Source of the DNA: a virus
Strand: one strand, 5' to 3'
Virus record (IMG/VR): IMGVR_UViG_3300042945_003044
DNA length: 64,000 nucleotides
Shown here: piece by piece, positions 9,901 through 31,624 of the stretch
Numbering within the stretch: position 1 is the first letter of the stretch
How the letters are laid out: the number at the start of each line of letters is the position of its first letter
The notes under the pieces: model-generated
The model's database searches: none
What the model saw: the letters and a program-made list of their open reading frames with translations, nothing else
What the model was told of the DNA's origin: nothing
Made by a program: the position numbers and the translations under genes

Positions 9901-12900
9901 CCATCCTCGTTTAGGATGGATACCTTCACCGAATTCTCAGGATACAGCCCTGTCGTCTTTGGCCAACGACAGTCTGTATCAGCAGCATAAAAATAAAAAT
10001 TCTGTATTAAAATGGAAGATGGATAAAAAAAATACATTCGTTTTTAAAGGCCTAGGTATATATGGTTTAAAAGCTTCTTATTATCACGACAAGCAACTTG
10101 CTCCTAGTTATAAAAGATCAGCTATCTATATTACAAACAGAAGCGGGGTTCCTTATAGCGATTATACTGGTCATGATAATAATCTTGGATATAGAAGTTC
10201 GAGCGATGCTTACGAATATATGTCTGATGAGTACCATGTAGATATTTTAAATGCTGGCTTAGCAGATATGACTTGTGATATTACTAATAACGCAGTGGTT
10301 TATGGGATCGATAGGCCGGATATAGATTCGTTAACGATTAGGGATATTGAAGTTAGAATTAATAACTTAAACTATCCAAATATTAAACATATGGTAGTTT
10401 GGCTAGAAGCTTCGAATGCCGCGTGGTCTGGAATCAATAATACCACAGATATACTTGATAATCCAAATCAGATAGATATATCCACAGTAGGATCACAATT
10501 TGCCGATTTAGCAGCGTACAGGACGGCATTGATTAATATGAACGCTAATCCTGATCCTAGTACCAGGCGACTATATTTATTAAACAGAGACTATATTGAA
10601 GACTATACTTATAATTATAGTATAACATTTTCGGATAATACTTCTTTGGATATGGGTGGTAATCCTAATAAAATCAACAGTGAAGTTTTATTTAAGAATA
10701 ATCAAACATATACTCAAAACCACAAGATTAAGCCCACGCTCACTCCTAATGGGTACGACGATGCTGCGTGTTCGATATATAGGTCTTCAATGGTTAAGAA
10801 CGGACTTATTCCCAAAGAAGCCTGCCTGCATAAATTTAATGGCTTACCACTCAAAGACACAACGTTTGCGCTTTATGTAGGAATATGGGACTATGAAGAC
10901 AATTTTATTGTAAGAGATATGAATCCATGGAATGCTACTTTGCTGGGTATGAAAGGGGTCACAGATAAAGTAAAACCAGGTATATTAAGCAATGCCTTGT
11001 GTTCTTGGGATCTCATAATACATACAGATAAGACTACTAGATCAGAGCCAACTGATCCCATTGGTCTATTTGATCGTAAAAATCAAGACCCAACTTTTAC
11101 CAACGGCAGCAGTTTTATAGCAAATTTCAAGGACCGCAAACATCTTATTCCACAAGTAAATTTAAATGCTCCATATAATTATCTTGATAATTCGAATTTT
11201 TGTGCTTATAAAGAACCAGAATTAACCACGGCTACGAGATTTAATATGGTGGAATTCCCCACCTGGGCAATATTACAGATTATAACAGCCATGACGCCAG
11301 TCTATGGTGGTGGCGGTTCGGTTTTTACTGGAGATCCTAGTACTGGGTATGGTGCTATTTATGATTTTTTTGCTCAAAATAGAGCCTCTAATCTTACAGA
11401 AATACAACAACGTAAAACACAAGTAGGAAGATATTCTAGACGACCATTTGGGGCCTCAGACAAAGCGCTCGTGGCGATTAGTAACGACGGTAATGTTTGG
11501 TATAAAACAGAACTACCTATTTTTAGATACGACAACTGCCATACTCTGCAAAATAATCAGTATTCATATATTAAGCTCAAAAAAAATAATATACCTTTTT
11601 TATCTCATTTTGATTTTCAGTTCTTCGCAGAATCTGACGCAGAGTTTTTACCTAGCGCCTCCGACTGGGCCGACAGCCTATTCAAGCACAAGTATATTGT
11701 TGATAATGCGGTGGTTGGGTTTAGTGGAGGCTTTACCTCTACAGATTTAATAGGGAATAAGTCTGTTATAAAGATCTATGGCCCAAGGGCGTATTATCTT
11801 TTTGACACTAATGATACCATTAGTATTTCTAGTCCCACGACAACAGACGCAAACAGAATGGTTAATAGAACAATAGCTTCTAAAGCTTTAATATCTATTA
11901 ACAATAAAGAATACACGGTATTTAAACTCAATACTAACATAAATGATGCATCGTATTTTACTAAACCAGAAGACAATCAAGACACCTTGATCATTTTTAA
12001 AAATGACTATACTACGATAGGGGGTGCAACTCCTATCAATATATGGGGCTTAGAGAAATCTCAGACACCAAGAAAAACACCAGATAGACACTTTAGCGCA
12101 TTTGGAGAGGGCTCATATGGTAGAGGAGTAGAGAATATTAGGGAAAATACTTTGTCTTATTTATTCGATCAGAATCATATAGAACCTATTTATGAAAATA
12201 TTAATCATAAACATAAATTTTTATTTAGATTTGATTCTATAAAAGTCAATAATTTAGATATCAATTTAGAAAATATTGCGTCTCCTACACGCAATAACAC
12301 TATAAGGGGCTTTCCTTGGTCAATAGATACTGAACAAAGAGGATTACTTAAGCAGTATGTTTTACTGGGTAAACCGTCACCACAACTACTGCAACAGATA
12401 GATAACCTGAAAAAACAGAAAGAGACCGCTAGAAAAAACATTACAGACGAAGACGCTTTAAAAGCAAGATTACACGCTATTGATGCTTCTATACCAGTGT
12501 CGCAAGTTGAAATAATGTTTATTCCAGATCTTAAAGCATATATCTCTTTTCTAGAGCCAGATTTGGAAGATTGCGACCCGTGCTTAAAAGATAGTGCGGA
12601 AAAACTTTTAAAAATTAAAGAGGAGCAAATAGCTCCATTTTACAAATTTAACACCTCTTATGCCTTTATAGATCTAAGACTAGATAGATTTAAAAGTAGT
12701 TCGGAAGTACCGGATACTGGAACCATATCTATAGCTAATGATTTTATTTTTAATCAGCCTCAAAATAAGCTAGATGCGAATACAATTAATACTATAAATA
12801 CTAGAATAGCTTTTTTAACAACTAAATCTCAAGCGTTTGAAAATAGACTCAATATAGCAAAAGAGGAGGATTCTTTTCCTACAAATATAACACTAACCGA

Positions 12901-19677: not shown

Positions 19678-20654
19678 ATAATAGCACTCTTAATCAATTT
19701 AGATAAATTTATGATAGATATACTTCGTCTTTTCATTTGATATGAATATGAAGCCAATTCGGTTTTCATAGGAACCGCTATATCTGAGTAATCATCAAGA
19801 CTTATAACTGTATTTCCGCATAGTCTAGCATAAGTTTCTTGCAAGTATAGAGTATTTTTTTCATTTAGAGATAAATATATATCACAAGATTTATGTGCTG
19901 CTATTATTTCTGATTCTGTAAATTGTTTAAAAATAAAAATTTCTTTTCCATATTCTGTTGGAAGGCCAAATTCTGAACGCATATTTTTAATATTGTTTTC
20001 TAATAGCTCTATATTAGGAGCATTATAATAATCTAAAAAGAATACGCAAACAGCTCCAAACGGACGTTCAGATATGCTAGAGTATAAAGAAAAAATTATT
20101 TTTTTGATAATGCCCTCATCTTCATCAAAATTACCTATAAAATACAGTTTCTTTGTATGATGATAGTTATCGAAAACGTACTTATTATTAGTATAATTAA
20201 TCAAATTATTCTTATCTACCCCTGTGTCTAATATAGATATTTTATCGGCTAGATCGGGACAATAAGTTGTTATGGTGGAAGCCTCTTTTTTTGATTGGAC
20301 CACTATATTATCAAAGAAACGTAAAATATCTAGAGAACTGGATGATATTCCAAAATCTTCTATATTTTCTATTATTGGAAATACATGATGTTGAGAAGCT
20401 ACGTCAGGCATATATTGTATGTGTTCTAACGGCAGATGCTGTACACATATATCGTATTGATTTTGTGCTATACTTGTTTTTTCAGTAATAAATTCTATTT
20501 TTTTCGGTAAAATTCTGTGCAATGATGATAGATATACTGGTCTAGATACCACATCCTCAGTACCATATCGCTTAGCCAACTGGCTAATATACAATCTAGA
20601 TACCTGTCCCAGAGTATCGGTATTTCTATAAGGACCTATAAATAAAATACTCAT
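19674..20654 (-). CDS. GT4-like glycosyltransferase (divergent)
   Basis: N-terminal ILFIGPYR..D.LG..SR.YI..L, KLYFIG, and AHKSCDIYLSL. The canonical EGFG motif is absent. Confidence 0.55.
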   Translation of the reverse strand: MSILFIGPYRNTDTLGQVSRLYISQLAKRYGTEDVVSRPVYLSSLHRILPKKIEFITEKTSIAQNQYDICVQHLPLEHIQYMPDVASQHHVFPIIENIEDFGISSSSLDILRFFDNIVVQSKKEASTITTYCPDLADKISILDTGVDKNNLINYTNNKYVFDNYHHTKKLYFIGNFDEDEGIIKKIIFSLYSSISERPFGAVCVFFLDYYNAPNIELLENNIKNMRSEFGLPTEYGKEIFIFKQFTESEIIAAHKSCDIYLSLNEKNTLYLQETYARLCGNTVISLDDYSDIAVPMKTELASYSYQMKRRSISIINLSKLIKSAII

Positions 20655-22324
20655 GGATTATTTGCGCCTACTATAAAGTCTTCATTTATTGGTGAGTTCT
20701 GTGCTCTTGCTCGCTCAGCCATATTGTGGTTATTTATTTTGTTTTGTATAGCGGCCAGTGCATTTGTAATAGAGTATTTCTCAAGCGTAATGCCTTGCTG
20801 AGTAAAGCCATAATCAGCATAGAATAACATATCTAGGGTGTTCATATTACATAAAAACTTTAAGTCTTTTAGATATTTAGAGCACACCAGAGTTAAAGTA
20901 TTTAAGTTATGAGACTTATCAATATTTTGCTCCATAATATTCTGAGGTATTGGCTCTAAATACAGTGGTGGACTATCCCATTGTTTTTTGGCACAATTAT
21001 CTGGATTTAGTGAACTAAGATAGTGTTCCCATTTTTTGTATATATCATCCCAATCGAAATGTTTTTCTACTAACTCCCTAGTTCTCCTCCTAATTTGTAT
21101 CATCTCGTTGTCTGTATAGTTCAAATACTTATGAATAATCTGTAGCAGCTGCGCGTTGTCTGGATATACCCTAAAGGCTTTAGTCTCCAACTCTTTAAAT
21201 TTTTTACGCACTCTAATCGGGTCTGCTTCAAGCTTCTTGACAATATCCTTCATAGCACTATAGTCAACAGTAGCAATCGGCGTACCGCATGCGGCCCCTT
21301 CTACTTGAGGCATTCCAAAACCTTCGCAAATAGCATATTGTATATACAAATCAAAAAGATTATAAATTTCTGAAAGTTTCGCGCTAGTTGGTGCGTCTGT
21401 AACTGATGGCATAGACATAGAACGACTGGAGCATTTTGGACATTTAATAGTTGCCCCAGAAAATACAGAAGCCTTGACATGATGACATTGTTTACAGAAG
21501 TATGAGAATAATATCTTGGAAAAAATATTATTTTCTTTTAGCAGCGAGGGGATGTCCCACCCGGCATCAGGATAACTGGTATGTAGCCATAAAAAACACT
21601 TATCTTTTTTTGCGTGATTACTTATATTAAGTTCGTTAATCAGTTTTTTAAACGATACTATTAGTTCCGGAATAAGTTTGCGCTTTTGATTACGCATGAC
21701 TGATCCAATTAAAAACGTATCAGATAAACCGTACTCTGTTTTAAGCTGCTGTCTTTTAGTATCGTCAAAACTTTGAAATAGATTTATATCTACTCCAGGA
21801 GACACGGTATTTATATAATTGATATGATTGTTGCTTTGATAGGCGAGTACTTTGGCGCCCCAATCGGAATAGGTGAATACGGCATCAGCAGAAGCGTATG
21901 TTTCGATCCATGGCTCTTGCTGAGGATAAGAATCAACAGTTGGCATTACGACCCAATGGTAAAAATCCCTTAAAGGACTAATAGACTGATAATAATTCAT
22001 CCAATAGTCACGTACATCTATCACCACATTTGGACGAAAATCCAGAAGCACCTTTTCAAATCGCCACCTGCCGAATTGGTTTTCCGTTGTCTTATTGTAC
22101 TCTGTGTATCTAGGATCATTTGAACTAACGGCGTTTGCATAGTATTTCCATTTTATACTACCTCTTCTTGGATCATCCGTTAGTCCATAAGAAGCAAATT
22201 CTGCAATCTCAAATTTATTTGAGTCATACAGTCTTTGCAGTAGTTCTTTGGTATAGTTTGCAAACCCGGTATTTAAAAAACTCGCTTCTGAACAAACTAG
22301 GATTTTGAGTTTTGTATTAGTCAT
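20651..22324 (-). CDS. GT4 family glycosyltransferase with Zn-ribbon insertion
   Basis: KILVCSEA...TGFA, IGSVMRNQKRK, YNLFDLY...EGFGMPQVEGAACG, inserted CKQC...CPKC. Start set at MTNTK (22324), downstream of the hairpin. Confidence 0.85.
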   Translation of the reverse strand: MTNTKLKILVCSEASFLNTGFANYTKELLQRLYDSNKFEIAEFASYGLTDDPRRGSIKWKYYANAVSSNDPRYTEYNKTTENQFGRWRFEKVLLDFRPNVVIDVRDYWMNYYQSISPLRDFYHWVVMPTVDSYPQQEPWIETYASADAVFTYSDWGAKVLAYQSNNHINYINTVSPGVDINLFQSFDDTKRQQLKTEYGLSDTFLIGSVMRNQKRKLIPELIVSFKKLINELNISNHAKKDKCFLWLHTSYPDAGWDIPSLLKENNIFSKILFSYFCKQCHHVKASVFSGATIKCPKCSSRSMSMPSVTDAPTSAKLSEIYNLFDLYIQYAICEGFGMPQVEGAACGTPIATVDYSAMKDIVKKLEADPIRVRKKFKELETKAFRVYPDNAQLLQIIHKYLNYTDNEMIQIRRRTRELVEKHFDWDDIYKKWEHYLSSLNPDNCAKKQWDSPPLYLEPIPQNIMEQNIDKSHNLNTLTLVCSKYLKDLKFLCNMNTLDMLFYADYGFTQQGITLEKYSITNALAAIQNKINNHNMAERARAQNSPINEDFIVGANNP

Positions 22325-22334
22325 AATAAACTTA

Positions 22335-22352
22335 GAGGGGCTTTCGCCCCTC
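22335..22352 (-). terminator. GC-rich hairpin (GAGGGGC-GAAA-GCCCCTC) after ssb; weak terminator or stabilising stem
   Basis: Perfect 7-bp stem with a GNRA loop on the - strand, followed by only an imperfect U tract (TAAGTTTATT). Confidence 0.55.
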
Positions 22353-22387
22353 ATAGTTCTCTAGTTCCGCTAATGATTGTTCTGTCC

Positions 22388-22765
22388 TTAGAAAGCAACA
22401 ACTTCTTCTGTTGACTGATCCTTTGAAGCGGATCTAGATAGCTTTGTGATTTTTGAAAAATTATTGACTCTTACCTTCAGAGTGCTATGCTTAACGCCAT
22501 CCTTTTCCCAAGAATCATTTCTTAGAGATCCTTCGATCATTACCAGATCACCCTTCTTGAAAGAAGTTCCGATAATCTCTGCGCCAGAGTCCCAAGCTTC
22601 ACAATTGATAAAAGAAGTAATCTTGTCCTTTGTGCCGTTTGCCTTTGTGTATTCGCGTGATACCGCAACGGTAAAATTAACGACAGAAGTTTGCTTGTCG
22701 CCCGAACCAACCATGCGCACCTCTGGATCACGAGCTAGATTACCCTTAAGAATCGTAATATTCAT
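22388..22765 (-). CDS. ssb: Single-stranded DNA-binding protein
   Basis: MN..IL.GNLARDPEVR...NFTVAV...FINCEAW...KKGDLVMIEGSL...W. Short acidic tail ending EEVVAF. AAGGAG Shine-Dalgarno. Confidence 0.95.
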   Translation of the reverse strand: MNITILKGNLARDPEVRMVGSGDKQTSVVNFTVAVSREYTKANGTKDKITSFINCEAWDSGAEIIGTSFKKGDLVMIEGSLRNDSWEKDGVKHSTLKVRVNNFSKITKLSRSASKDQSTEEVVAF

Positions 22766-22818
22766 TTAAGTTCTCCTTGTTTATTTAAACCAATCGTGAG
22801 CCAACCGCTCACAACACT

Positions 22819-22846
22819 ATAGTAGGGAAGACCCCGGCGATGTCAA
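22819..22846 (-). promoter_or_regulatory. Sigma70-type promoter upstream of ssb
   Basis: - strand TTGACA-N16-TACTAT. Confidence 0.6.
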
Positions 22847-24474
22847 GACGACGGCATAAAACATTTCTCTACGATCAAGCCGTCCATCTCTTTGTTTTTA
22901 GAGCCTATAAATATTAGTATATTATTAACAAATAGATGGTGTTTGTATTCTAGATATTTTTCTGGAAAAAATATAATAGAGTCTATGGAGCCATATTGAT
23001 CCGATATGCTTATAAAAGCCATTTCTTGTCCTGGGTTCTTACCTTTTTTTGTTTTGACTATATGGATATTATCTATTTCTCCAGCAATGATAATATTTTT
23101 GGTTAAGCCTTTATTATTATGGAAATCCTTACAGTCTGTATTAGTCATAGCCATATCATATGAATCTAGTTTGGAACAGCTTATAGCCGTGCCTAGTAGT
23201 GTTTCTTCGGTGTCAGATAACCATTCTATTTTATCTATCAAAGAATATGGAGGATGGTCTAAAGTTTCCAGAATATTATTAATTACTTCTTTTCTTTTTT
23301 GTGTGAGTTTAGGCTTTTGTAGTAGTTGCAGGACGGACTTATTCAGAGACAAATTTTTCGACCCATCGACTGAGCTTATCAAAAAATCGATCTCTTTTTG
23401 TGTAAGTCTTGAGATAAGTTCATATTGTAAAATCATCTCTGTTCTGTTGATCTTAAGATAATCAAAAGCCCCTGATGATATCATATTTTTAGCTGCCAAA
23501 GAATTGATATTAGGGAGTACCTGTAATAGGATATATGCCCAGGACATAGACCCTAGATCTTTTCCGTGACATAGGGCGGTAATCTTTTCATATACCGAAT
23601 CTCCAAGGCCCTTTATATTTGTTAAACCAAAATAGATAACTTTATTCTTGAGATAGAATAGTTTAGACATATCTCTAAAGTCCGGTACTCTAATATCTAT
23701 ATTCATTTGATTGGCATTTTTTACCAATTCTTTGATTTCTTGTTTCGGATCAACTTTGTCTTTTGCATATCTGAGATAAGAAGCAAAAAATATTCTAGGA
23801 AAATGAGCCTTGGCAAAAGCCGATAAGTAAGCATTTATAGCGTAACTAACGCTATGAGACTTATTAAAAGAGTATCTTTGGCTTTTTTCGATCCATCCGA
23901 AAATTTCTTCGGCTTCTGATTCTGTCACTATTTTTTTAGTCTTACATCCTTCTATGAACTTGGTTTTCAGTTTAGCCATTTCCTCTGGCTTTTTCTTTCC
24001 AATGGCTTTTCTGAGAACGTCAGCTTCCTGCAAATCGAACCCAGCTATCTCTTGAGATATTTGCATCGCCTGTTCTTGATATATCATCTCCCCATAGGTT
24101 TCTTTGAGTATATGCTCTAAACTAGGATGAAAATAATCTATAGATTCTGATCCATTTTTCTTGTCTATATAGTGATTACTAACGCTCTTGCCATCTCTTA
24201 AGGCTTCCAGACAACCAGGGCGCAATATCGCTATCAAAGCAGATAGCTGTTCAATATTATTGGGTTTCAATTTTTTTGCCATAGATTGGCCAAGCCTAGA
24301 CTCTAACTGAAAGCATCCTTTTGTATTGCCAGAGCCTATTAATTCCCAAGTTCTATTACAAGCAAGATCTATGTTATCAATATATGGAGAAAAATTAATA
24401 CGAGGTATTGACTCCCCATCGTGTTTATCCAATGGAAATTTACATCCACAATCAAACGTATAGTATTCTGACAT
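22843..24474 (-). CDS. dnaE: DNA polymerase III alpha subunit, C-terminal part (fingers, HhH, OB fold)
   Basis: GCFQLES, LRPG, IYQEQ, LRKAIGKK, YSFNKSHS..YA, FGLTNIKGLG, OB-fold KTKKG...MAF...D..G. Confidence 0.92.
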   Translation of the reverse strand: MSEYYTFDCGCKFPLDKHDGESIPRINFSPYIDNIDLACNRTWELIGSGNTKGCFQLESRLGQSMAKKLKPNNIEQLSALIAILRPGCLEALRDGKSVSNHYIDKKNGSESIDYFHPSLEHILKETYGEMIYQEQAMQISQEIAGFDLQEADVLRKAIGKKKPEEMAKLKTKFIEGCKTKKIVTESEAEEIFGWIEKSQRYSFNKSHSVSYAINAYLSAFAKAHFPRIFFASYLRYAKDKVDPKQEIKELVKNANQMNIDIRVPDFRDMSKLFYLKNKVIYFGLTNIKGLGDSVYEKITALCHGKDLGSMSWAYILLQVLPNINSLAAKNMISSGAFDYLKINRTEMILQYELISRLTQKEIDFLISSVDGSKNLSLNKSVLQLLQKPKLTQKRKEVINNILETLDHPPYSLIDKIEWLSDTEETLLGTAISCSKLDSYDMAMTNTDCKDFHNNKGLTKNIIIAGEIDNIHIVKTKKGKNPGQEMAFISISDQYGSIDSIIFFPEKYLEYKHHLFVNNILIFIGSKNKEMDGLIVEKCFMPSS

Positions 24475-24496
24475 ATAACCTATTTATGATTAGTCC

Positions 24497-25195
24497 TTAC
24501 TCGGAGATCGCAAAAGAGTCTCTGAATTTGATTTTCCTAGCAAGATTTCTATGTAGCTTCAAAAACCTTAAAAGCAGTTCTGCTGTATCCATAACGTCTT
24601 TTAGAGCATCGTGGGCGCCTTCTTTTGGGATTCCAAAATAATCTCTTACAGAATCTAGGGTATAGTTTTTAAGATCTCCATTATTTTCAAACCATAAAAA
24701 CATCATATGCATCAAGTCTATAGTATCTCTAGGATAGAATAGGCTTGTGGTTCCTTCCTTGGTTACATTCTTATACTTTTTACTTAATCTATCTACGATC
24801 TTTAAATCGAATCTATGTATATTATATCCACATGCAATTGGAGCGCTGAAAAAAGATTTTCTTTCAGATCTGCTGTGATACATATCTAGATAGGACACAA
24901 ACATTTGCCACCCAGATTCTTGCTTTTGATAAGCATGCCATTCTTTTAAGATTTGCTCCTTAGAAGAACTCTTAACCTTAGCATGAAAATCTAAAACATC
25001 AGAATCCGCATAGGAATACGTCGGGTTCTCTTCTATTGCTTCTGGCTTTAATGTACAATTAAATTGAGAGTCTTTAATAATCTCTAACTTAATCGGATCT
25101 ATCATTACGGCTGCAATCTGAACAGGGCTGCATCGCGATGGATCAGCCCCGTCAGTTTCCATATCAAACACGCATAATTTTTGAAAATTAACCAT
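24497..25195 (-). CDS. dnaQ: DEDDh 3'-5' exonuclease (DnaQ/epsilon-like)
   Basis: ExoI VFDMETDG, ExoII GYNIHRFD, ExoIII AHDALKD. Confidence 0.88.
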   Translation of the reverse strand: MVNFQKLCVFDMETDGADPSRCSPVQIAAVMIDPIKLEIIKDSQFNCTLKPEAIEENPTYSYADSDVLDFHAKVKSSSKEQILKEWHAYQKQESGWQMFVSYLDMYHSRSERKSFFSAPIACGYNIHRFDLKIVDRLSKKYKNVTKEGTTSLFYPRDTIDLMHMMFLWFENNGDLKNYTLDSVRDYFGIPKEGAHDALKDVMDTAELLLRFLKLHRNLARKIKFRDSFAISE

Positions 25196-25379
25196 TTAAC
25201 TCTTCTACAGTGGTATTAGGTGGTACAAACTGATTTGACCCATCGGCCAAATTGACGCAGTTTACCACTCGACAGCAACTTACTCTAACGTCCTCAATTC
25301 TCCTATATTCTGTACCATTGACAGAAAATTTGACACCAACAGCAACCTCAGACAATAGCTTGGGCATATCAACCTCCAT
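25188..25379 (-). CDS. Small Cys-containing hypothetical protein between dnaE-N and dnaQ
   Basis: 63-aa ORF (possibly starting at MPKLL) overlapping both neighbours, with VSCC...NC. Confidence 0.6.
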   Translation of the reverse strand: MEVDMPKLLSEVAVGVKFSVNGTEYRRIEDVRVSCCRVVNCVNLADGSNQFVPPNTTVEELNG

Positions 25380-27237
25380 TTTTAAGAATTTGAGAGACTT
25401 CCATCATTTTATCTAACATCGCAACACCCAAAATATCAAATTTAATTATTCCCAAATATTCCAAGTCTTGCATCTCCATGCCAGCTATAGTCTGATCTGC
25501 TTTAGAATCATAAACCATAGGACACACAGAGTCAAGTGGTTCGCTGCTTATTACTACACCGGCAGCATGTTTAGACTGATTAGATTTAGTACCCTCCAGT
25601 CTTATAGCCTGCTCAAAACGCTTTGCTAAAGGACCCTCAAGCTCTCCGTGTTCGTTTAAGTAACACCATTCTTTCAGTTTGTCTCCATTGTTCTCTAAAG
25701 CCCATCTTATGATAGAAGATTCCCCCGTATCGTCTTTCATTTCTTGCAATTCATCCGCTATCTTAGCTTCGTCTGGGATATTCTTTGTGATTCTATTCAT
25801 TTCTTCAAAAGATATATTACCATAGACACGTAAAACTTCTTTTAAGGCTCCTCTGCCTTTCATAGTATTAAAAGTAATCATTTGAGAGACTTTGTTATAA
25901 CCGTATTTGTTTTTTATATAATCTACAACTTCTTCTCTCTTATTGATTGGAACGTCAACGTCTATATCTGGCATGGACACACGATCCGCGGTATTTCTGC
26001 CTGCGTTGTAAAAACGCTCGAAAATTAAATTATACCTGATAGGGTCTATAGATGTTATGCCAATTAAATAAGACACCAAGCAGCCAGCGGCAGAGCCTCT
26101 ACCTGGGCCTGGGAGCCATCCATTCTCAGACACATACTGCACAATATCTTGAACTATCAAAAAGTAACTAGATAAACCGGCCTTTTGTAGAATATCTAAT
26201 TCATATTTAATGCGGTCAACATAAACTGGATGATCTGATTCTGGTATATGATTTTTTATTTTTTTTGCCCAGCCATCACGGCATAGTTGTCTGAGATATT
26301 CATCGGGGTTTTGATTATTTGGACATTTAAAAGGAGGTAGTATCGGAGGGCTTGATATGTTATAATCTTCACATAAGGAATCTACATATATTGTATTTTC
26401 TATCTCTTCTTCTGTGTGGATCTCGATCATTTCTTTAGGAGATAAAATATGAAAGTTATCGGATCTAAAAAAACAGGCCATAGAAGTGTCTTCATTATTT
26501 AAGAGCTTTTTATTGATTTCTGCTATAGTTGTTTTAAGATTGTTGCACAATAAGATCCTTTGATCCACAGCATCTTCTTTGGAACAATAATGAGCGTCTG
26601 GCGTACATAATACCTTAGTATTAGTGGTTTTTCCTAACTCTCTAACATATTCTGTCATAGATATTTGTTCTGGACTATATTGCTGGTCCATGAGTTGGCT
26701 TTCCAAGAAAAAGTTATCAACCCCAAACATTTCTTTCATTTGTGCCACAAAATTAATACCAATATTTTTAGCGTCCTCTGGTTTTGCTTGTTGGGTAATA
26801 TCGTGTAAATAAGATCCTAGATGACCACAGTAACCTATAATATTTCCGTCTAGATATTCAGATAATTCCGCTAGGCTAATTCTAGGTTTGTGATAAAATC
26901 TACTTGGGTGATTACAAGCGGATACTATTTTAATCAAGGTTTGCCATCCCTTATAGTTTTTTGCCAACAATAAAAAATGCGTTAAGTCTCTATTTTCTTT
27001 TGTTTTTATAGTAGAATTTTGATGGCACAAATATATTTCGCAGCCAAGGATAGGCTTGATCTTATTTGTTTTCATCGTATTATGAAACTGAACAGCGCCG
27101 GCTATGGTACCATGATCCGTTATTGCGCAGCTCTTAACTCCTATATCCAAACACCTAGCGGCTATTTGACTGGGTTTGCTCAAGCCATCAAGTAGAGAGT
27201 AGTGGGAGTGTACGTGTAAAGGAACATAATTTTTCAT
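25369..27237 (-). CDS. dnaE: DNA polymerase III alpha subunit, N-terminal part (PHP + palm/thumb)
   Basis: LHVHSHYSLLDG, AITDHG, GCEIY, DAHY, GRGSAAG, catalytic PDIDVD, HAAGVVIS, KFDILG, then a stop. Confidence 0.95.
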   Translation of the reverse strand: MKNYVPLHVHSHYSLLDGLSKPSQIAARCLDIGVKSCAITDHGTIAGAVQFHNTMKTNKIKPILGCEIYLCHQNSTIKTKENRDLTHFLLLAKNYKGWQTLIKIVSACNHPSRFYHKPRISLAELSEYLDGNIIGYCGHLGSYLHDITQQAKPEDAKNIGINFVAQMKEMFGVDNFFLESQLMDQQYSPEQISMTEYVRELGKTTNTKVLCTPDAHYCSKEDAVDQRILLCNNLKTTIAEINKKLLNNEDTSMACFFRSDNFHILSPKEMIEIHTEEEIENTIYVDSLCEDYNISSPPILPPFKCPNNQNPDEYLRQLCRDGWAKKIKNHIPESDHPVYVDRIKYELDILQKAGLSSYFLIVQDIVQYVSENGWLPGPGRGSAAGCLVSYLIGITSIDPIRYNLIFERFYNAGRNTADRVSMPDIDVDVPINKREEVVDYIKNKYGYNKVSQMITFNTMKGRGALKEVLRVYGNISFEEMNRITKNIPDEAKIADELQEMKDDTGESSIIRWALENNGDKLKEWCYLNEHGELEGPLAKRFEQAIRLEGTKSNQSKHAAGVVISSEPLDSVCPMVYDSKADQTIAGMEMQDLEYLGIIKFDILGVAMLDKMMEVSQILKNGG

Positions 27238-28316
27238 GTAGATCCTGGCGCCTTATATGATCCAAAGGTATGATTGGGACTCTTATACAGATTAACAACC
27301 GTATCGATATTATATAATTCTATATCGTGTTTAACTTGTTCACATTTAGTCATGAATGACCCGTTTTGACAAGTCTGACCGTCTCTGTATTCAATTATAG
27401 GGTCGATGCCGGTATTTTCAAATGTTGTTTTTCCGAAATGACACAACTTACTACACATCCAGCTCTTGTTTAATCTAGGCTTTTTTGTTTTCTTTATATA
27501 CTCAAATTTTTGCCTAAGCATATCTTCTGTTTCTTTTAAGTGAGATTTTTCAAAACAAACAGAAAAAGGACCCCCGTCATTGATAAAATAAATAGAAAAC
27601 ATGATATGCTCTATTTCAGGATATAAATGACTGATAGCATAATGATATATTCTTAATTGTGGGTCTTTTTCTAGTTTTTCTTGAGTCTTTTCTTGTCCTG
27701 TTGCCCAGTCCAGCCTTCGTCCAGTTTTCCAGTCTACGATCTCTATGGTTTTATCGTTGACTTTTGTTATTAAGTCGATGGTGCCTTTTAGGGCCAGATT
27801 GCCTTCTAACTTTGATCCGTCCGGCAAATCGTATGAGTATTTAGCCCACGATTTTTTAATTTCAAAATCAAAATGTTGCTCTGGACACAATATTTGTCTA
27901 TTGCGTGGATCAAACATACCGTCATTAAATTCGATAGCTTTATATACCCAAGCATGACAGTCTTTATAGTCTTTTATAGACCACTTATGATGAGTACTTA
28001 TTTCGGAATAGTGCTTATATACCTTTTCTATTATGGTGTTAAGGCTATAGTCATCAACATTAACTTTCCCTACGATATCATCCGTAAAAAATGCAATATT
28101 GTCCTGTTGAGACTGTTTAATAAACGCCAAGATTTCTAGAACCTTATGTACAATAGTTCCTTTATCTGCCTTTTGTCCGGATGGTCCTCTCCAACCCAAT
28201 ACATATTCCATAAAGAACTGCTGCTCGCACATACTATGGGTATTATATGAACTGCTTCTAAAATACGTTATTATAATGATAGCACCTCTTTTAAAGCGTT
28301 TTGTATCTCCATGCAT
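27234..28316 (-). CDS. PD-(D/E)xK RecB/Cas4-like exonuclease
   Basis: SSSY....C, GTIVHKVLE, LKGTIDL...IVDWKTG, QLRIY, C-terminal C..LC...C (Fe-S staple). True start uncertain, possibly near 28274. Confidence 0.85.
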   Translation of the reverse strand: MHGDTKRFKRGAIIIITYFRSSSYNTHSMCEQQFFMEYVLGWRGPSGQKADKGTIVHKVLEILAFIKQSQQDNIAFFTDDIVGKVNVDDYSLNTIIEKVYKHYSEISTHHKWSIKDYKDCHAWVYKAIEFNDGMFDPRNRQILCPEQHFDFEIKKSWAKYSYDLPDGSKLEGNLALKGTIDLITKVNDKTIEIVDWKTGRRLDWATGQEKTQEKLEKDPQLRIYHYAISHLYPEIEHIMFSIYFINDGGPFSVCFEKSHLKETEDMLRQKFEYIKKTKKPRLNKSWMCSKLCHFGKTTFENTGIDPIIEYRDGQTCQNGSFMTKCEQVKHDIELYNIDTVVNLYKSPNHTFGSYKAPGST

Positions 28317-29005
28317 TGTTCATATATAGACATTTGATCATTATCTATAACAAAACTAAAATTATTCCAGTCGTACTGATCTTTGTCTAAAATATTTTCA
28401 CTAATATGATCAGATTCGTATGGACTACGCGTTAATCTAATAACGTGTCCACCACTATTTTTAATAATATCTACCTCGTTAGGAAATCTACAATCTGTAA
28501 TAATTGCTATTTTTGGCGCTTCTCTCTGTATCTTTCTGATAGTAGCATCTGCCCAAATATTAGGGCTTAATTTACGAAATATATCTGTGCCAATATACTG
28601 CATAACTTCTCTCGCTGTCATTGCAGCCCCGTCTAATTCTAAGCTGGTAAGACTATTTTTGGCATCTTCATTTCCATAACACTGATCACGACTCAGACCA
28701 AGAATATTGATACAAATATCTTTTTTTAAGGTATCAGCAAAATTATATATTTTGATATAAGGATTGAGCCTTTCTCTAATCTCCATTAGTATATAATCAT
28801 CAGTATCGTTAACCAGCTGCTCAGCATCATAAATGCCTTTGTAGCTTCTATTACCCAGTAAGTCCGATACGATAATTTTACCATTATTATCTATTTTAAT
28901 GTCCCCAGCCAACCCGAGCTTAGACATACATAATGATACAATAAAATTACCGGATGTTGTTTTTCCAGACTGTTTTTTACCAGAAAATCCTAGAATCAGT
29001 GTCAC
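28271..29005 (-). CDS. Deoxynucleoside monophosphate kinase
   Basis: GFSGKKQSGKTT P-loop, FAD.LK, REVMQYIGT..FR, ITDCRFPNE, H.SE. Confidence 0.9.
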   Translation of the reverse strand: MTLILGFSGKKQSGKTTSGNFIVSLCMSKLGLAGDIKIDNNGKIIVSDLLGNRSYKGIYDAEQLVNDTDDYILMEIRERLNPYIKIYNFADTLKKDICINILGLSRDQCYGNEDAKNSLTSLELDGAAMTAREVMQYIGTDIFRKLSPNIWADATIRKIQREAPKIAIITDCRFPNEVDIIKNSGGHVIRLTRSPYESDHISENILDKDQYDWNNFSFVIDNDQMSIYEQCMEIQNALKEVLSL

Positions 29006-30192
29006 AATATTTCTCCTATCTTTGGCCTAATATATTTATTAATTTCTTCCACCGTCATATCCCCAACATCTGCATAATTAACAGAATGCTCTTGGCATAT
29101 ATTTTCTAGTCTTATATGATCTATTAAATAGGTTCTTGAACACTTATTCGTTATGCTCTCTGCGGCTTTAAGGCCAGCTTCGTCATTGTCCATAATCGTA
29201 ATAATCTTCATAGCACCAGATATGTCTAATAACATTTTTTGCTTATCGCTGAGTGAAGAACCGAAAACAGCTACTGCATTATATATGCCCGCTTCTTCTA
29301 GCCTCCAGACATTGCCGGGGCTTTCTACTATGATTACTGTTTTAGTATCAGTTATATGATTTTTAGCATTCCATATATTGTACAAATTTTCTTCACTTCT
29401 AAAACCAGAACTATGTCTCCATTTAGATATTGTTTTACTGGGACATGTAGTTTCTGGACTATGAAAAGATGAACACTTAGAACACTTATCAAATATGCTT
29501 CTGCCAGTACAGGCCACCACCCACTTACCAGTTAGATCATAGATAGGCACTACTGCTCTCAAATACATCTCTTTATTAGGTTTGAGACATTCTCCGACAT
29601 CAAATTTTTTCAGAATTTCGCTAGAAAAGCCCCTAGACAAAAAGTATGGCGAAGGAATATCTAGTGATTTTTTAACCAAATTTTTATCTATTTTAATAAT
29701 ATCTCTATTGATATGTTCTTTTGATAGATACTTTATGGTATTGGAGAACTTTTGTTTTTCTATTTCTTTAGAATCTACATTTAGTTGATCAATATTCTTT
29801 TCGCCGAGAATATCGTTGATCACTGCTATTGTTTCTTGAAAAGAAACTGTTGGGTCTCCATCTTTAACCCAATTAAATTTTTTATGGGACAATACCCCAC
29901 GTATAAAACCTATCACAGATGCCTTAAAAACCTTTTCACACTGATGCGTTCTACATTTCCAATTGCCTCTATATGTATCTCCTTCGTGATATAGGTTTAA
30001 AGCAGACTCGTTGTCTCCTCCGTGTATAGGGCAGCTCATAGTCAGCATTCTAGACATAAGCCGATATTCAGAAATATCTAGTCTAGATAAAACTTCTTCT
30101 ATATTATCACAAATATTATCCGATAATACTTTTAACTGATTTTGATTATACGAAGTCGATTTGATCTTTATTTTCATCGATTGTAAAGCCAT
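29002..30192 (-). CDS. dnaG: DNA primase (Zn finger + TOPRIM)
   Basis: CPIHGGDN...WKC..H.C Zn finger, GRS, IIVESPGN, MDNDEAG, DVGDM. Start uncertain. Confidence 0.88.
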   Translation of the reverse strand: MALQSMKIKIKSTSYNQNQLKVLSDNICDNIEEVLSRLDISEYRLMSRMLTMSCPIHGGDNESALNLYHEGDTYRGNWKCRTHQCEKVFKASVIGFIRGVLSHKKFNWVKDGDPTVSFQETIAVINDILGEKNIDQLNVDSKEIEKQKFSNTIKYLSKEHINRDIIKIDKNLVKKSLDIPSPYFLSRGFSSEILKKFDVGECLKPNKEMYLRAVVPIYDLTGKWVVACTGRSIFDKCSKCSSFHSPETTCPSKTISKWRHSSGFRSEENLYNIWNAKNHITDTKTVIIVESPGNVWRLEEAGIYNAVAVFGSSLSDKQKMLLDISGAMKIITIMDNDEAGLKAAESITNKCSRTYLIDHIRLENICQEHSVNYADVGDMTVEEINKYIRPKIGEIL

Positions 30193-31624
30193 TAGTTTTT
30201 ATACCCAAATTATTTTTAAGTTCTATTCTTGTTTGACCTTCGGAAATTTTGGCGCACCAACCCTTCATGTGACAATTAATATAATCATTGTCGTCGAGCC
30301 CTCCGCCATGACGACTTATTACAGGTATAAGCTTTCTGTTCCCCGCTTCTGGTCCGTCTTCTGCTATTTCTTCATCTGACTTACGCTTAAATATAGTAAA
30401 ATTACTGCAAAGCCATATGATTCGATCCGATCCAGATGCGGTGTCTGTGCTTTCTTTGGATATGCCGTCTCTATTTAATTGTACAAACGCCACGATTGGT
30501 AGCTTATATTTGCAAGCAAAATTATGAAGAGCGGTCATCATAAACCCTAGAACCTGATATTCCTTCATGTCTTGAGATATACCAGCAGAGTCCATGAGCT
30601 TTAGATAGTCATAAAATATAACGCAATCTTTAGCGGTTCCATCGTCATTCAGTCCAACTTCTTTAATGAGCCATCTTTTCATCATAGATATTTGTTCATC
30701 AAAGGGCTTACCGGCAATGCTTTTATGAAAAATGGGCGTTTGTTTTAAATCCTCTACTGCTTTGAGTACCTTTTCTTTCATAGCTGGCGTCTCTGCGAAT
30801 TTGCCGGTTTCTATTTTTGACATTTCGACCTCGGCGCTCATAGCTATGAGTCTGTGTATATGGTCTTCTTTGGTCATTTCTGTGTCCATATTTAAGACCG
30901 GAATTTTTAGCTTATTGGCGATATGAAAACCTATATTATCAGACAATAATGTTTTACCGACTTTCGGTCTAGCTGCTATCACATTGATAGTGCTTTTTCT
31001 AAGTCCACCGCCTATAGCCATGTCGTATACAGGAAACCCAGTGGGTATACCCATCTGACTAATCGGATTATCTATTAGATTATTGATATAATCATCTAGG
31101 TTTTTACTAATCGACTCCGGTTCAGTAGCATTATCCACCAGCCCTGTAGAAAAATCAAGTATCGTGTCTTCCGCGATAGAAAGAATAGACGATATGCTTT
31201 CGGTGCCGGTAATATCTAATAGCTTCTCTTGAGTATCTCCGAGCGATTTATATAGGTCTCTTGCTATTTCTAGCTTTTTTATCTTTGCGGCAAATTTTTT
31301 AACATTAGATTTTTCAACAGGGAAATCTCTAATGGCCTGTAAATGCTGAACCTCTTCCTTTTTTTGTAATAGGTGAGATATCCCTAGTTCTTGGGCAGCT
31401 GAGTATATGGATGCTATATCTAGTTTTTTCGTACTAATAGTATCTGTATGTTCTGTTTTTCCAACAGATAATACATGAGCTAAGCATTTATATATATATT
31501 GATTACTGTCTATAGTAAATGTTGATTCTTTAAGAAGATCACATACTTCAAGATAAGAGTCATCGCCATATTGGAATATACCGCTTAGAACTGCTCTTTC
31601 TGCGGCAGGGTCGCATAGTATCAT
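30146..31624 (-). CDS. dnaB: Replicative DNA helicase
   Basis: AERAVLSG, GIPTGF, AARPKVGKT, DTEM, DYLKLM, QLNR, SRHG. Confidence 0.93.
   Translation of the reverse strand: MILCDPAAERAVLSGIFQYGDDSYLEVCDLLKESTFTIDSNQYIYKCLAHVLSVGKTEHTDTISTKKLDIASIYSAAQELGISHLLQKKEEVQHLQAIRDFPVEKSNVKKFAAKIKKLEIARDLYKSLGDTQEKLLDITGTESISSILSIAEDTILDFSTGLVDNATEPESISKNLDDYINNLIDNPISQMGIPTGFPVYDMAIGGGLRKSTINVIAARPKVGKTLLSDNIGFHIANKLKIPVLNMDTEMTKEDHIHRLIAMSAEVEMSKIETGKFAETPAMKEKVLKAVEDLKQTPIFHKSIAGKPFDEQISMMKRWLIKEVGLNDDGTAKDCVIFYDYLKLMDSAGISQDMKEYQVLGFMMTALHNFACKYKLPIVAFVQLNRDGISKESTDTASGSDRIIWLCSNFTIFKRKSDEEIAEDGPEAGNRKLIPVISRHGGGLDDNDYINCHMKGWCAKISEGQTRIELKNNLGIKTNGFTIDENKDQIDFV

Follow-up and report, generated by a model that had tools for sequence, protein, structure and literature searches.

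The window analysed here is a stretch of 64,000 nucleotides (nt) of viral DNA, taken from the IMG/VR virus record IMGVR_UViG_3300042945_003044. A preliminary description of its sequence had reported four intact open reading frames (ORFs) between positions 22843 and 27237, where the gene for the alpha subunit of DNA polymerase III (dnaE) lies in two halves, here called N-part and C-part, with a very small ORF and a 3'-5' exonuclease gene of the DEDDh type between them. The four ORFs were found at these positions, tightly packed on the minus strand. The features of the locus are listed below.

25369..27237, minus strand: dnaE N-part, 622 amino acids (aa), with PHP, palm, thumb and second palm segment, as assigned by Pfam and alignment to Taq.
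25188..25367, minus strand: mini-ORF, 59 aa from Met5, or 63 aa (25188..25379) if the ATG at 25379 is used.
24497..25195, minus strand: DEDDh 3'-5' exonuclease, 232 aa, presumed proofreading subunit, identified by RNase_T and phrog_192 matches.
22843..24474, minus strand: dnaE C-part, 543 aa, with fingers, helix-hairpin-helix (HhH, beta-binding) domain and OB fold, as assigned by Pfam, alignments and an AF2 model.
24382..24474, minus strand: N-terminal leader of the C-part, residues 1-31.
25373..25377, minus strand: GGAGG, Shine-Dalgarno sequence for the mini-ORF, within the last N-part codons and 5 nt upstream of the mini-ORF start (ATG at 25367), as seen in the sequence itself.
22335..22352, minus strand: terminator-like GC-rich hairpin after ssb.

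The N-part ends with a TGA at 25371-25369, and the ATG at 25367-25365 lies 1 nt past this stop. This codon (Met5) is most likely the start of the mini-ORF, because it is preceded by GGAGG, the relatives mostly have 59 aa and the ESM Atlas sequence begins at residue 5. The first three genes had been described as overlapping. This holds for the mini-ORF and the exonuclease gene, which share 8 nt (ATGGTTAA); the N-part and the mini-ORF overlap only from the ATG at 25379, the likelier Met5 start leaving a gap of 1 nt. The junction sequence also places 22 nt between the stop of the exonuclease and the start of the C-part, as already noted, and this is the largest intergenic gap in the four-gene block. 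The two halves are thus separated by 894 nt containing two conserved genes, both in other frames.

Pfam matches in the N-part correspond to PHP (residues 7-181) and DNA_pol3_alpha (313-604). The PHP match is uninterrupted: the exonuclease is a separate ORF placed after the palm, and not an in-frame domain of the PolC type. By alignment to the catalytic motifs of Taq, the three catalytic aspartates are D424 and D426 (PDIDVD, at 423) and D601 (KFDILG, at 599). The PHP domain and the complete catalytic triad agree with the preliminary description; the residues left after KFDILG are 18 by our count, instead of about 17. Each of the nine metal-ligand positions of PHP is occupied (H8, H10, D17, H42, E67, H87, H139, D214 and H216; window 26590-27216), as judged from the sequence and the Taq alignment, and H42, H87, H139 and H216 are invariant across the clade of relatives described below. 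The PHP domain may, on these grounds, be an active nuclease beside the DEDDh enzyme.

The C-part has DNA_pol3_finger (32-180) and HHH_6 (259-346) matches, both above the cut-off, and an OB match (462-528) below it (18.9 vs 27 bits). It carries the nucleotide-binding motifs YQEQ at 132, LRKAIGKKK at 154 and FNKSHS at 203, and is without the tau-binding C-terminal domain. Its AF2 model, with a predicted local confidence (pLDDT) of 86, matches the Pol III alpha subunits of Taq, M. tuberculosis and E. coli at E = 4e-20, over about 523 columns.

In order to map the break, the halves were aligned to continuous DnaE sequences. No continuous DnaE polypeptide is encoded in the window, a stop codon being found after residue 622. 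On phrog_405 the halves cover positions 41-614 and 622-1053, and on the 1146 positions of NCBIfam PRK05673 they cover 5-575 and 584-1052. The break is equally clean on the single proteins: the N-part reaches Taq 637-639 and the C-part resumes at Taq 646, or at 589 in E. coli. The C-part therefore begins with the segment that normally comes next in DnaE, as previously claimed, and in none of the phrog_405, PRK05673 and Taq alignments is a segment duplicated or missing. Beyond the Taq alignment, only 2 residues are left at the end of the N-part and about 25 at the beginning of the C-part. Judged by these alignments, the chain is cut in the loop joining the last palm helix to the fingers, at about residues 575-588 of E. 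coli.

Elements able to rejoin the two halves were searched for at the protein, RNA and DNA level. Profile searches produced zero Hint or Intein Pfam matches on the four proteins; the sensitivity of the search is documented by the homologues, in which Intein_splicing, Hint and LAGLIDADG were detected at other sites. No known split-intein pair would fit at the break, where the tails have only 2 and about 25 residues. An intron between the halves was rejected as well: an Rfam covariance search at E values up to 1 gave zero matches over positions 20000-30000, and the interval is fully coding, with gaps not exceeding 22 nt. No homing endonuclease is present in the window, the intervening genes being the mini-ORF, which encodes an SH3-like protein, and the DEDDh exonuclease. 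On all three points the preliminary description was correct. Excision or rearrangement of the DNA was considered too; direct repeats involving both junctions were not found, and only short chance pairs were seen. The break is also not the cyanobacterial one: the junction of PRK09532 and PRK07373 falls near C-part residue 203, at the FNKSH site, some 190 residues downstream of the break in the window.

The distribution of the arrangement was evaluated in two collections. A search of IMG/VR with the N-part identified 146 matching stretches, of which 80 loci were kept. The gene order is shared by every locus of the 80 that was long enough: PD-(D/E)XK nuclease, N-part, mini-ORF, exonuclease, C-part and ssb follow one another, with intact ORFs, tight spacing and identities of 56-85% for the six genes (tblastn). 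Such constancy of the four-gene order excludes chance. A full HMMER search of 1.84 billion representatives, defined at 50% identity, was used to collect the 150 best N-part matches, which range between 39 and 67% identity. About 139 of these 150 end at the same alignment position as the N-part: 119 are plain, 13 to 15 have inserts of 120-790 aa elsewhere in the N-part and the rest are N-terminally truncated. Other forms among the best 150 are four continuous DnaE proteins (P0008, P0046 and P0080 among the continuous relatives), two proteins ending in an intein fragment and one fused to a cpYpsA SLOG domain.

The order N-part, exonuclease, C-part extends to relatives sharing about 40-50% identity, and constitutes the conserved core of the locus; the surrounding gene content varies in the distant IMG/VR relatives. 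The mini-protein is present in four of these (L087-L090). In L091-L095 its slot is filled by an unrelated ORF of about 80 aa, which was tried as a homologue of the mini-protein and rejected (hhalign probability 0.4), and in L097-L100 no gene separates the N-part from the exonuclease. Extra genes lie between exonuclease and C-part in L101; a likeness of one of these ORFs to staphylococcal nuclease, noticed by eye, was discarded, as it produced zero Pfam matches. L104 and L105 have about 1.8 kb in which a second RNase_T gene lies, and genes of the uracil-DNA glycosylase family follow the N-part in L084 (5832-6386) and L095 (9709-10293). The break region carries a variable cargo of DNA-metabolism genes. 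In a single relative (L103:8889-9755), a 289-aa ORF directly after the N-part stop contains a pair of DUF4379 treble-clef zinc fingers and weakly matches PvuRts1I-like nucleases, and no C-part is found in the next 4 kb; this ORF possibly encodes a free-standing endonuclease located at the same break.

Among GenBank phages no close relative or isolate was found, the best match being at about 34% identity. PHROGs contain no family for the N-part half-gene, and IMG/VR scans with P0034 and P0112 as queries returned no useful split loci.

Several relatives deserve separate mention. The larger inserts in N-part homologues (330-790 aa) occur at two sites, around residue 60 in PHP and around 380-395, near GPGRGSAAG. 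Their carriers (P0007, P0012, P0016, P0018, P0021, P0022, P0041, P0043-45, P0048, P0051, P0076 and P0105) all still end at the intein-less break. Scans of two of them, P0018 and P0043, confirmed intein domains, the latter having two inteins, one of them with LAGLIDADG. P0013 (891 aa) and P0024 (881 aa) run uninterrupted through the break and are ended by an Intein_splicing fragment soon after the equivalent of C-part residues 205-210, near the cyanobacterial-type split-intein site. In P0134 (762 aa) an N-part ending at the break is joined to a YpsA (SLOG) domain of the circularly permuted type. The sole match in a collection of species genomes, L138:1-8216 (RFNS01000104.1, from a Lake Lanier metagenome-assembled genome labelled Alphaproteobacteria), has the order N-part, mini-ORF, exonuclease, C-part, ssb, with N-part and C-part in separate frames at the break. 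Its N-part (residues 419-427) and its PD-(D/E)XK gene have in-frame inserts of about 1.1 and 0.9 kb, which are candidate inteins; it is possibly a binned phage contig, and therefore only a weak hint to the host. Two cultured Bacillus phages have dnaE genes interrupted elsewhere: in vB_BceM_WH1 (L081) dnaE is annotated as three coding sequences, with gaps of 725 and 404 nt and the first break at about N-part residue 433; in Jayan (L082) the break is at about N-part residue 420, and a 76-aa ORF lies between the pieces.

The exonuclease shows the three motifs of the DEDDh family, Exo I (DMETDG, at 11), Exo II (YNIHRFD, at 124) and Exo III (HDALKD, at 195); H195 is invariant in the clade. It matches Pfam RNase_T, phrog_192 (DNA polymerase exonuclease subunit) and, weakly, the DnaQ family. 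In five relatives classified as complete by CheckV (153-244 kb, two with terminal repeats) it is the sole RNase_T gene. Its gene position and the phrog_192 match, the two grounds for the assignment, suggest that it is the proofreading subunit. In L035-L037 (around 10048-10731) the exonuclease is contiguous by tblastn, yet the first ATG, GTG or TTG yields a 147-aa ORF only, which points to a non-canonical start codon or a sequence error.

Selection on the four genes was estimated by the Nei-Gojobori method (NG86). The median ratios of nonsynonymous to synonymous substitutions (dN/dS) are 0.045 for the N-part, 0.10 for the mini-ORF, 0.058 for the exonuclease and 0.048 for the C-part, and all four are under purifying selection. 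N-part and C-part trees built from the same loci are congruent. The same five complete relatives have one DNA_pol3_alpha match each and zero matches to DNA_pol_A or DNA_pol_B; as they give no other polymerase match, the split DnaE is their only recognisable replicase.

The four genes belong to a tightly coupled replication operon, which encodes DnaB, a Toprim primase, a deoxynucleoside monophosphate (dNMP) kinase, the PD-(D/E)XK nuclease, N-part, mini-protein, exonuclease, C-part and single-stranded DNA-binding protein (SSB). Genes upstream of the N-part include those at 27234-28316 and 28271-31624 of the window, and the PD-(D/E)XK stop overlaps the N-part start by 4 nt. Counts of internal promoters and terminators in the locus were not above those of shuffled sequences. 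The hairpin at 22335..22352 is the first convincing terminator-like site downstream of the four genes, so that the transcription unit likely ends there; no comparable site is found between N-part and C-part. Together, the window and its relatives encode DnaB, Toprim primase, SSB, a RecA/UvsX-like protein, ribonucleotide reductase (RNR) and dNMP kinase.

Two further elements at the break were analyzed by structure prediction. The mini-protein is modelled by AF2 as an SH3-like barrel of five strands (pLDDT 87). Residues F18, C35, C36 and V58 are invariant, and the Cys-Cys pair is predicted to sit at the tip of the beta3-beta4 hairpin. Structural neighbours are generic SH3, KOW, Tudor and EF-P domain I folds only (Z up to 5.5), those in the Atlas are unnamed viral clusters, and no family was found in Pfam, PHROG or NCBIfam. 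Its distribution indicates that the mini-protein is an optional addition confined to one subclade, and not a core subunit. The second element is the leader of the C-part, about 25 residues of which have no counterpart in continuous DnaE. Residues 4-15 are predicted to form a beta-hairpin (strands 4-6 and 12-15; AF2 pLDDT about 80), with Cys9-Gly-Cys11 (CGC) in the turn. The F.CGC.F motif is conserved over the split clade, including lineages without the mini-protein. It is absent in six relatives continuing past the break (P0003, P0008, P0046, P0080, P0013 and P0024) and in two split sublineages (L069/L070/L077/L078 and L091/L093).

Taken together, these data make it probable, with good confidence, that the four genes encode parts of one C-family replicase, assembled non-covalently and without splicing. 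A multi-subunit enzyme of this kind had been proposed in the preliminary description, and the proposal is strongly, though indirectly, backed by the deep conservation of gene order, purifying selection, congruent trees and the presence of a sole polymerase. In such an enzyme PHP, the thumb and the palm, which contains the whole catalytic triad of aspartates, would come from the N-part, and the C-part would contribute the fingers for binding the incoming nucleotide, the HhH domain for binding DNA and clamp, and the OB fold. The halves would be held by the large palm/fingers domain interface, as in bacterial enzymes. One translationally coupled message would encode both polymerase halves and the proofreader, so that, as proposed here, all parts would appear together and in matched amounts. 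The CGC hairpin leader would most likely be a docking tail, comparable to those that NrdA, likewise split, has in phage Aeh1, and the 59-aa SH3-like protein a subclade accessory, perhaps involved in assembly or stabilisation.

Several points weigh against this interpretation. Physical assembly, activity and the roles of hairpin and mini-protein are all deduced from sequence. The exonuclease is only distantly DnaQ-like, and its binding to either half is assumed; moreover, with the PHP ligands all kept, PHP might itself proofread, which makes the role of the DEDDh enzyme ambiguous. A sliding clamp (DNA_pol3_beta, PF00712) was not found in the five complete relatives, which leaves processivity unexplained.

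The relationship between split and continuous forms was analyzed by using phylogenetic trees. In the N-part trees (FastTree, and IQ-TREE rooted with an outgroup), the forms that continue past the break constitute two small clades nested in the split clade, with a local support of 99, and the C-part tree agrees with this nesting. The most economical reading of these trees would be one old split followed by two re-fusions. A tree constrained to make all split forms monophyletic was 76.6 log-likelihood units worse and not firmly rejected by the approximately unbiased test (p = 0.051), the group having been named after the tree was seen. The continuous relative L086 has a syntenic neighbourhood, with a homologous exonuclease about 4 kb downstream. 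No fused form, with the exonuclease or the mini-protein within a longer protein, was found, which is weak evidence. The exonuclease gene may have entered dnaE by insertion at a site that attracts genes, including one putative endonuclease, or the arrangement may derive from the fission of a fused ancestor.

A more far-reaching version of the multi-subunit reading is conceivable, and is offered tentatively, as having less than an even chance. The split would be the ancestral, selected state of a very large phage lineage, instead of a scar that is tolerated, and the three chains of the core (palm half, fingers half and exonuclease) would be obligate; the CGC hairpin would make a new inter-subunit site on the N-part, possibly a metal site, the proofreader would sit in the palm/fingers junction, and re-fusion would have occurred at least twice.

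A different role for the small elements had been suggested earlier, namely a metal-bridged interface between the FDCGCKF leader and the SCC...NC of the mini-protein. In its full form, the mini-protein would be an essential bridge, and its Cys-Cys would bind, together with the Cys-Gly-Cys of the leader, a metal clamping the halves. Both motifs are conserved in the subclade of the window and both are placed by the models at hairpin tips. Each, however, occurs without the other: four loci have the mini-protein and no CGC leader (L069, L070, L077 and L078), others the leader and no mini-protein (L097-L101, L094 and L104), and the unrelated ORF of about 80 aa replaces the mini-protein in L091-L095. 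Since mini-protein and leader occur independently, a shared metal site is unsupported. Nor is the mini-protein conserved at its third Cys, which is C or A among relatives. The only Cys or His columns tracking the CGC leader are C255 and H274 of the N-part, over two independent losses; the two residues are candidate partners of the leader, as a lead only. An essential metal bridge is accordingly considered improbable.

Marginally less probable still is the possibility that the halves do not form a polymerase, and have separate jobs (PHP nuclease or pyrophosphatase, DNA binding), the phage being replicated by the Pol III of its host. The intact PHP ligands would fit such jobs, and dependence on the host would fit the fact that no clamp or clamp loader of the phage was recognised. 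Conservation of catalytic aspartates and fingers motifs in the clade, down to 39% identity, argues otherwise, as do a dN/dS of about 0.05 for both halves and the fact that these remain adjacent and co-diverge; the phages encode, in addition, their own DnaB, primase, SSB, RNR and dNMP kinase.

Covalent joining by unrecognised protein ligation, RNA trans-splicing, ribosomal bypassing or DNA rearrangement is very improbable: no positive point favours it, spacing and relative frames of the halves differ among relatives, and it is opposed by the 894 nt and two conserved genes in between, by the short tails, by the failure to find Hint domains where inteins are readily found elsewhere in homologues, by the absence of ribozyme matches in Rfam and by the lack of flanking repeats.

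If the non-covalent replicase is real, no C-family replicative polymerase would have been known before to act as separate palm and fingers chains without trans-splicing. The split itself is the rule among these uncultured aquatic phages, which have genomes of about 150-245 kb and form a deep and abundant clade, and is no exception there. The break shows where Pol III alpha is naturally divided and, with the candidate docking tail, could be used in split-enzyme design and in structural studies of the communication between palm and fingers; the locus could also help to find out why the gene of a proofreader lies within that of its polymerase. In annotation, gene callers and curators will call these halves fragments or pseudogenes. 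The continuous forms nested in the split clade hint at gene re-fusion, an evolutionary direction rarely documented; if the split is ancestral, the locus would represent a natural and reversible fission of a replicase.

A full-text search of the literature for split dnaE returned intein-related work only. The arrangement can be compared with systems that resemble it in part. In the PolC of Firmicutes the exonuclease belongs to a single polypeptide, as a domain lying in frame within PHP. Like PolC, the locus in the window has a C-family polymerase with a DEDDh proofreader within the polymerase coding region; unlike PolC, it has the exonuclease as a separate gene, at the palm/fingers border. The split DnaE of cyanobacteria, which Wu, Hu and Liu are said to have described in 1998 together with its split intein, is likewise encoded by two genes (PRK09532 and PRK07373), with one polymerase that needs both halves. 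The cyanobacterial halves carry intein fragments, are trans-spliced and have their genes far apart, whereas none of this applies to the window.

Fractured genes have been described in marine and freshwater metagenomes, where dnaE and other replication genes are broken into halves that share one locus and flank a free-standing gene (Dassa et al. 2009, PMC2677866). Split inteins and a homing endonuclease accompany the fractured dnaE, and both are absent from the window; an SbcD-like case in the same work has no intein and extra residues at the break (PMC2677866). In T4-like jumbo phages a minimal Pol III alpha is made as two proteins (Iyer et al. 2021, PMC7824862). This version is a bare catalytic module, lacking PHP and every accessory domain, is encoded by genes far from each other and exists alongside a PolB replicase (PMC7824862), while the window has a full-length DnaE, cut once, as sole polymerase.

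The closest parallels are found in intein-less genes in pieces of T4-like phages. The PolB gene 43 is split (43A/43B) in Aeromonas phages 25 and 44RR (PMC2988022), and the split gp43 of phage 25 is reported to co-purify and to be active (Petrov 2010, as cited in PMC2988022); in phage Aeh1, NrdA is split by mobE, and the novel tails at the break point are essential (PMC3045599). As in gp43A/B and NrdA-a/b, two neighbouring cistrons, with foreign DNA between them, encode an essential replication enzyme without RNA or protein splicing, relatives have a continuous gene, the intact halves are under selection and a novel tail is found at the break. In those systems function is restored by non-covalent assembly, and the same is proposed here by analogy. 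The differences are that the enzyme of the window is a C-family DnaE, that the inserted gene encodes its own putative proofreader instead of a homing endonuclease, and that the split, limited to few phages in the case of gp43 and NrdA, appears here to be ancient and is dominant, extending to at least about 139 clusters at 50% identity.

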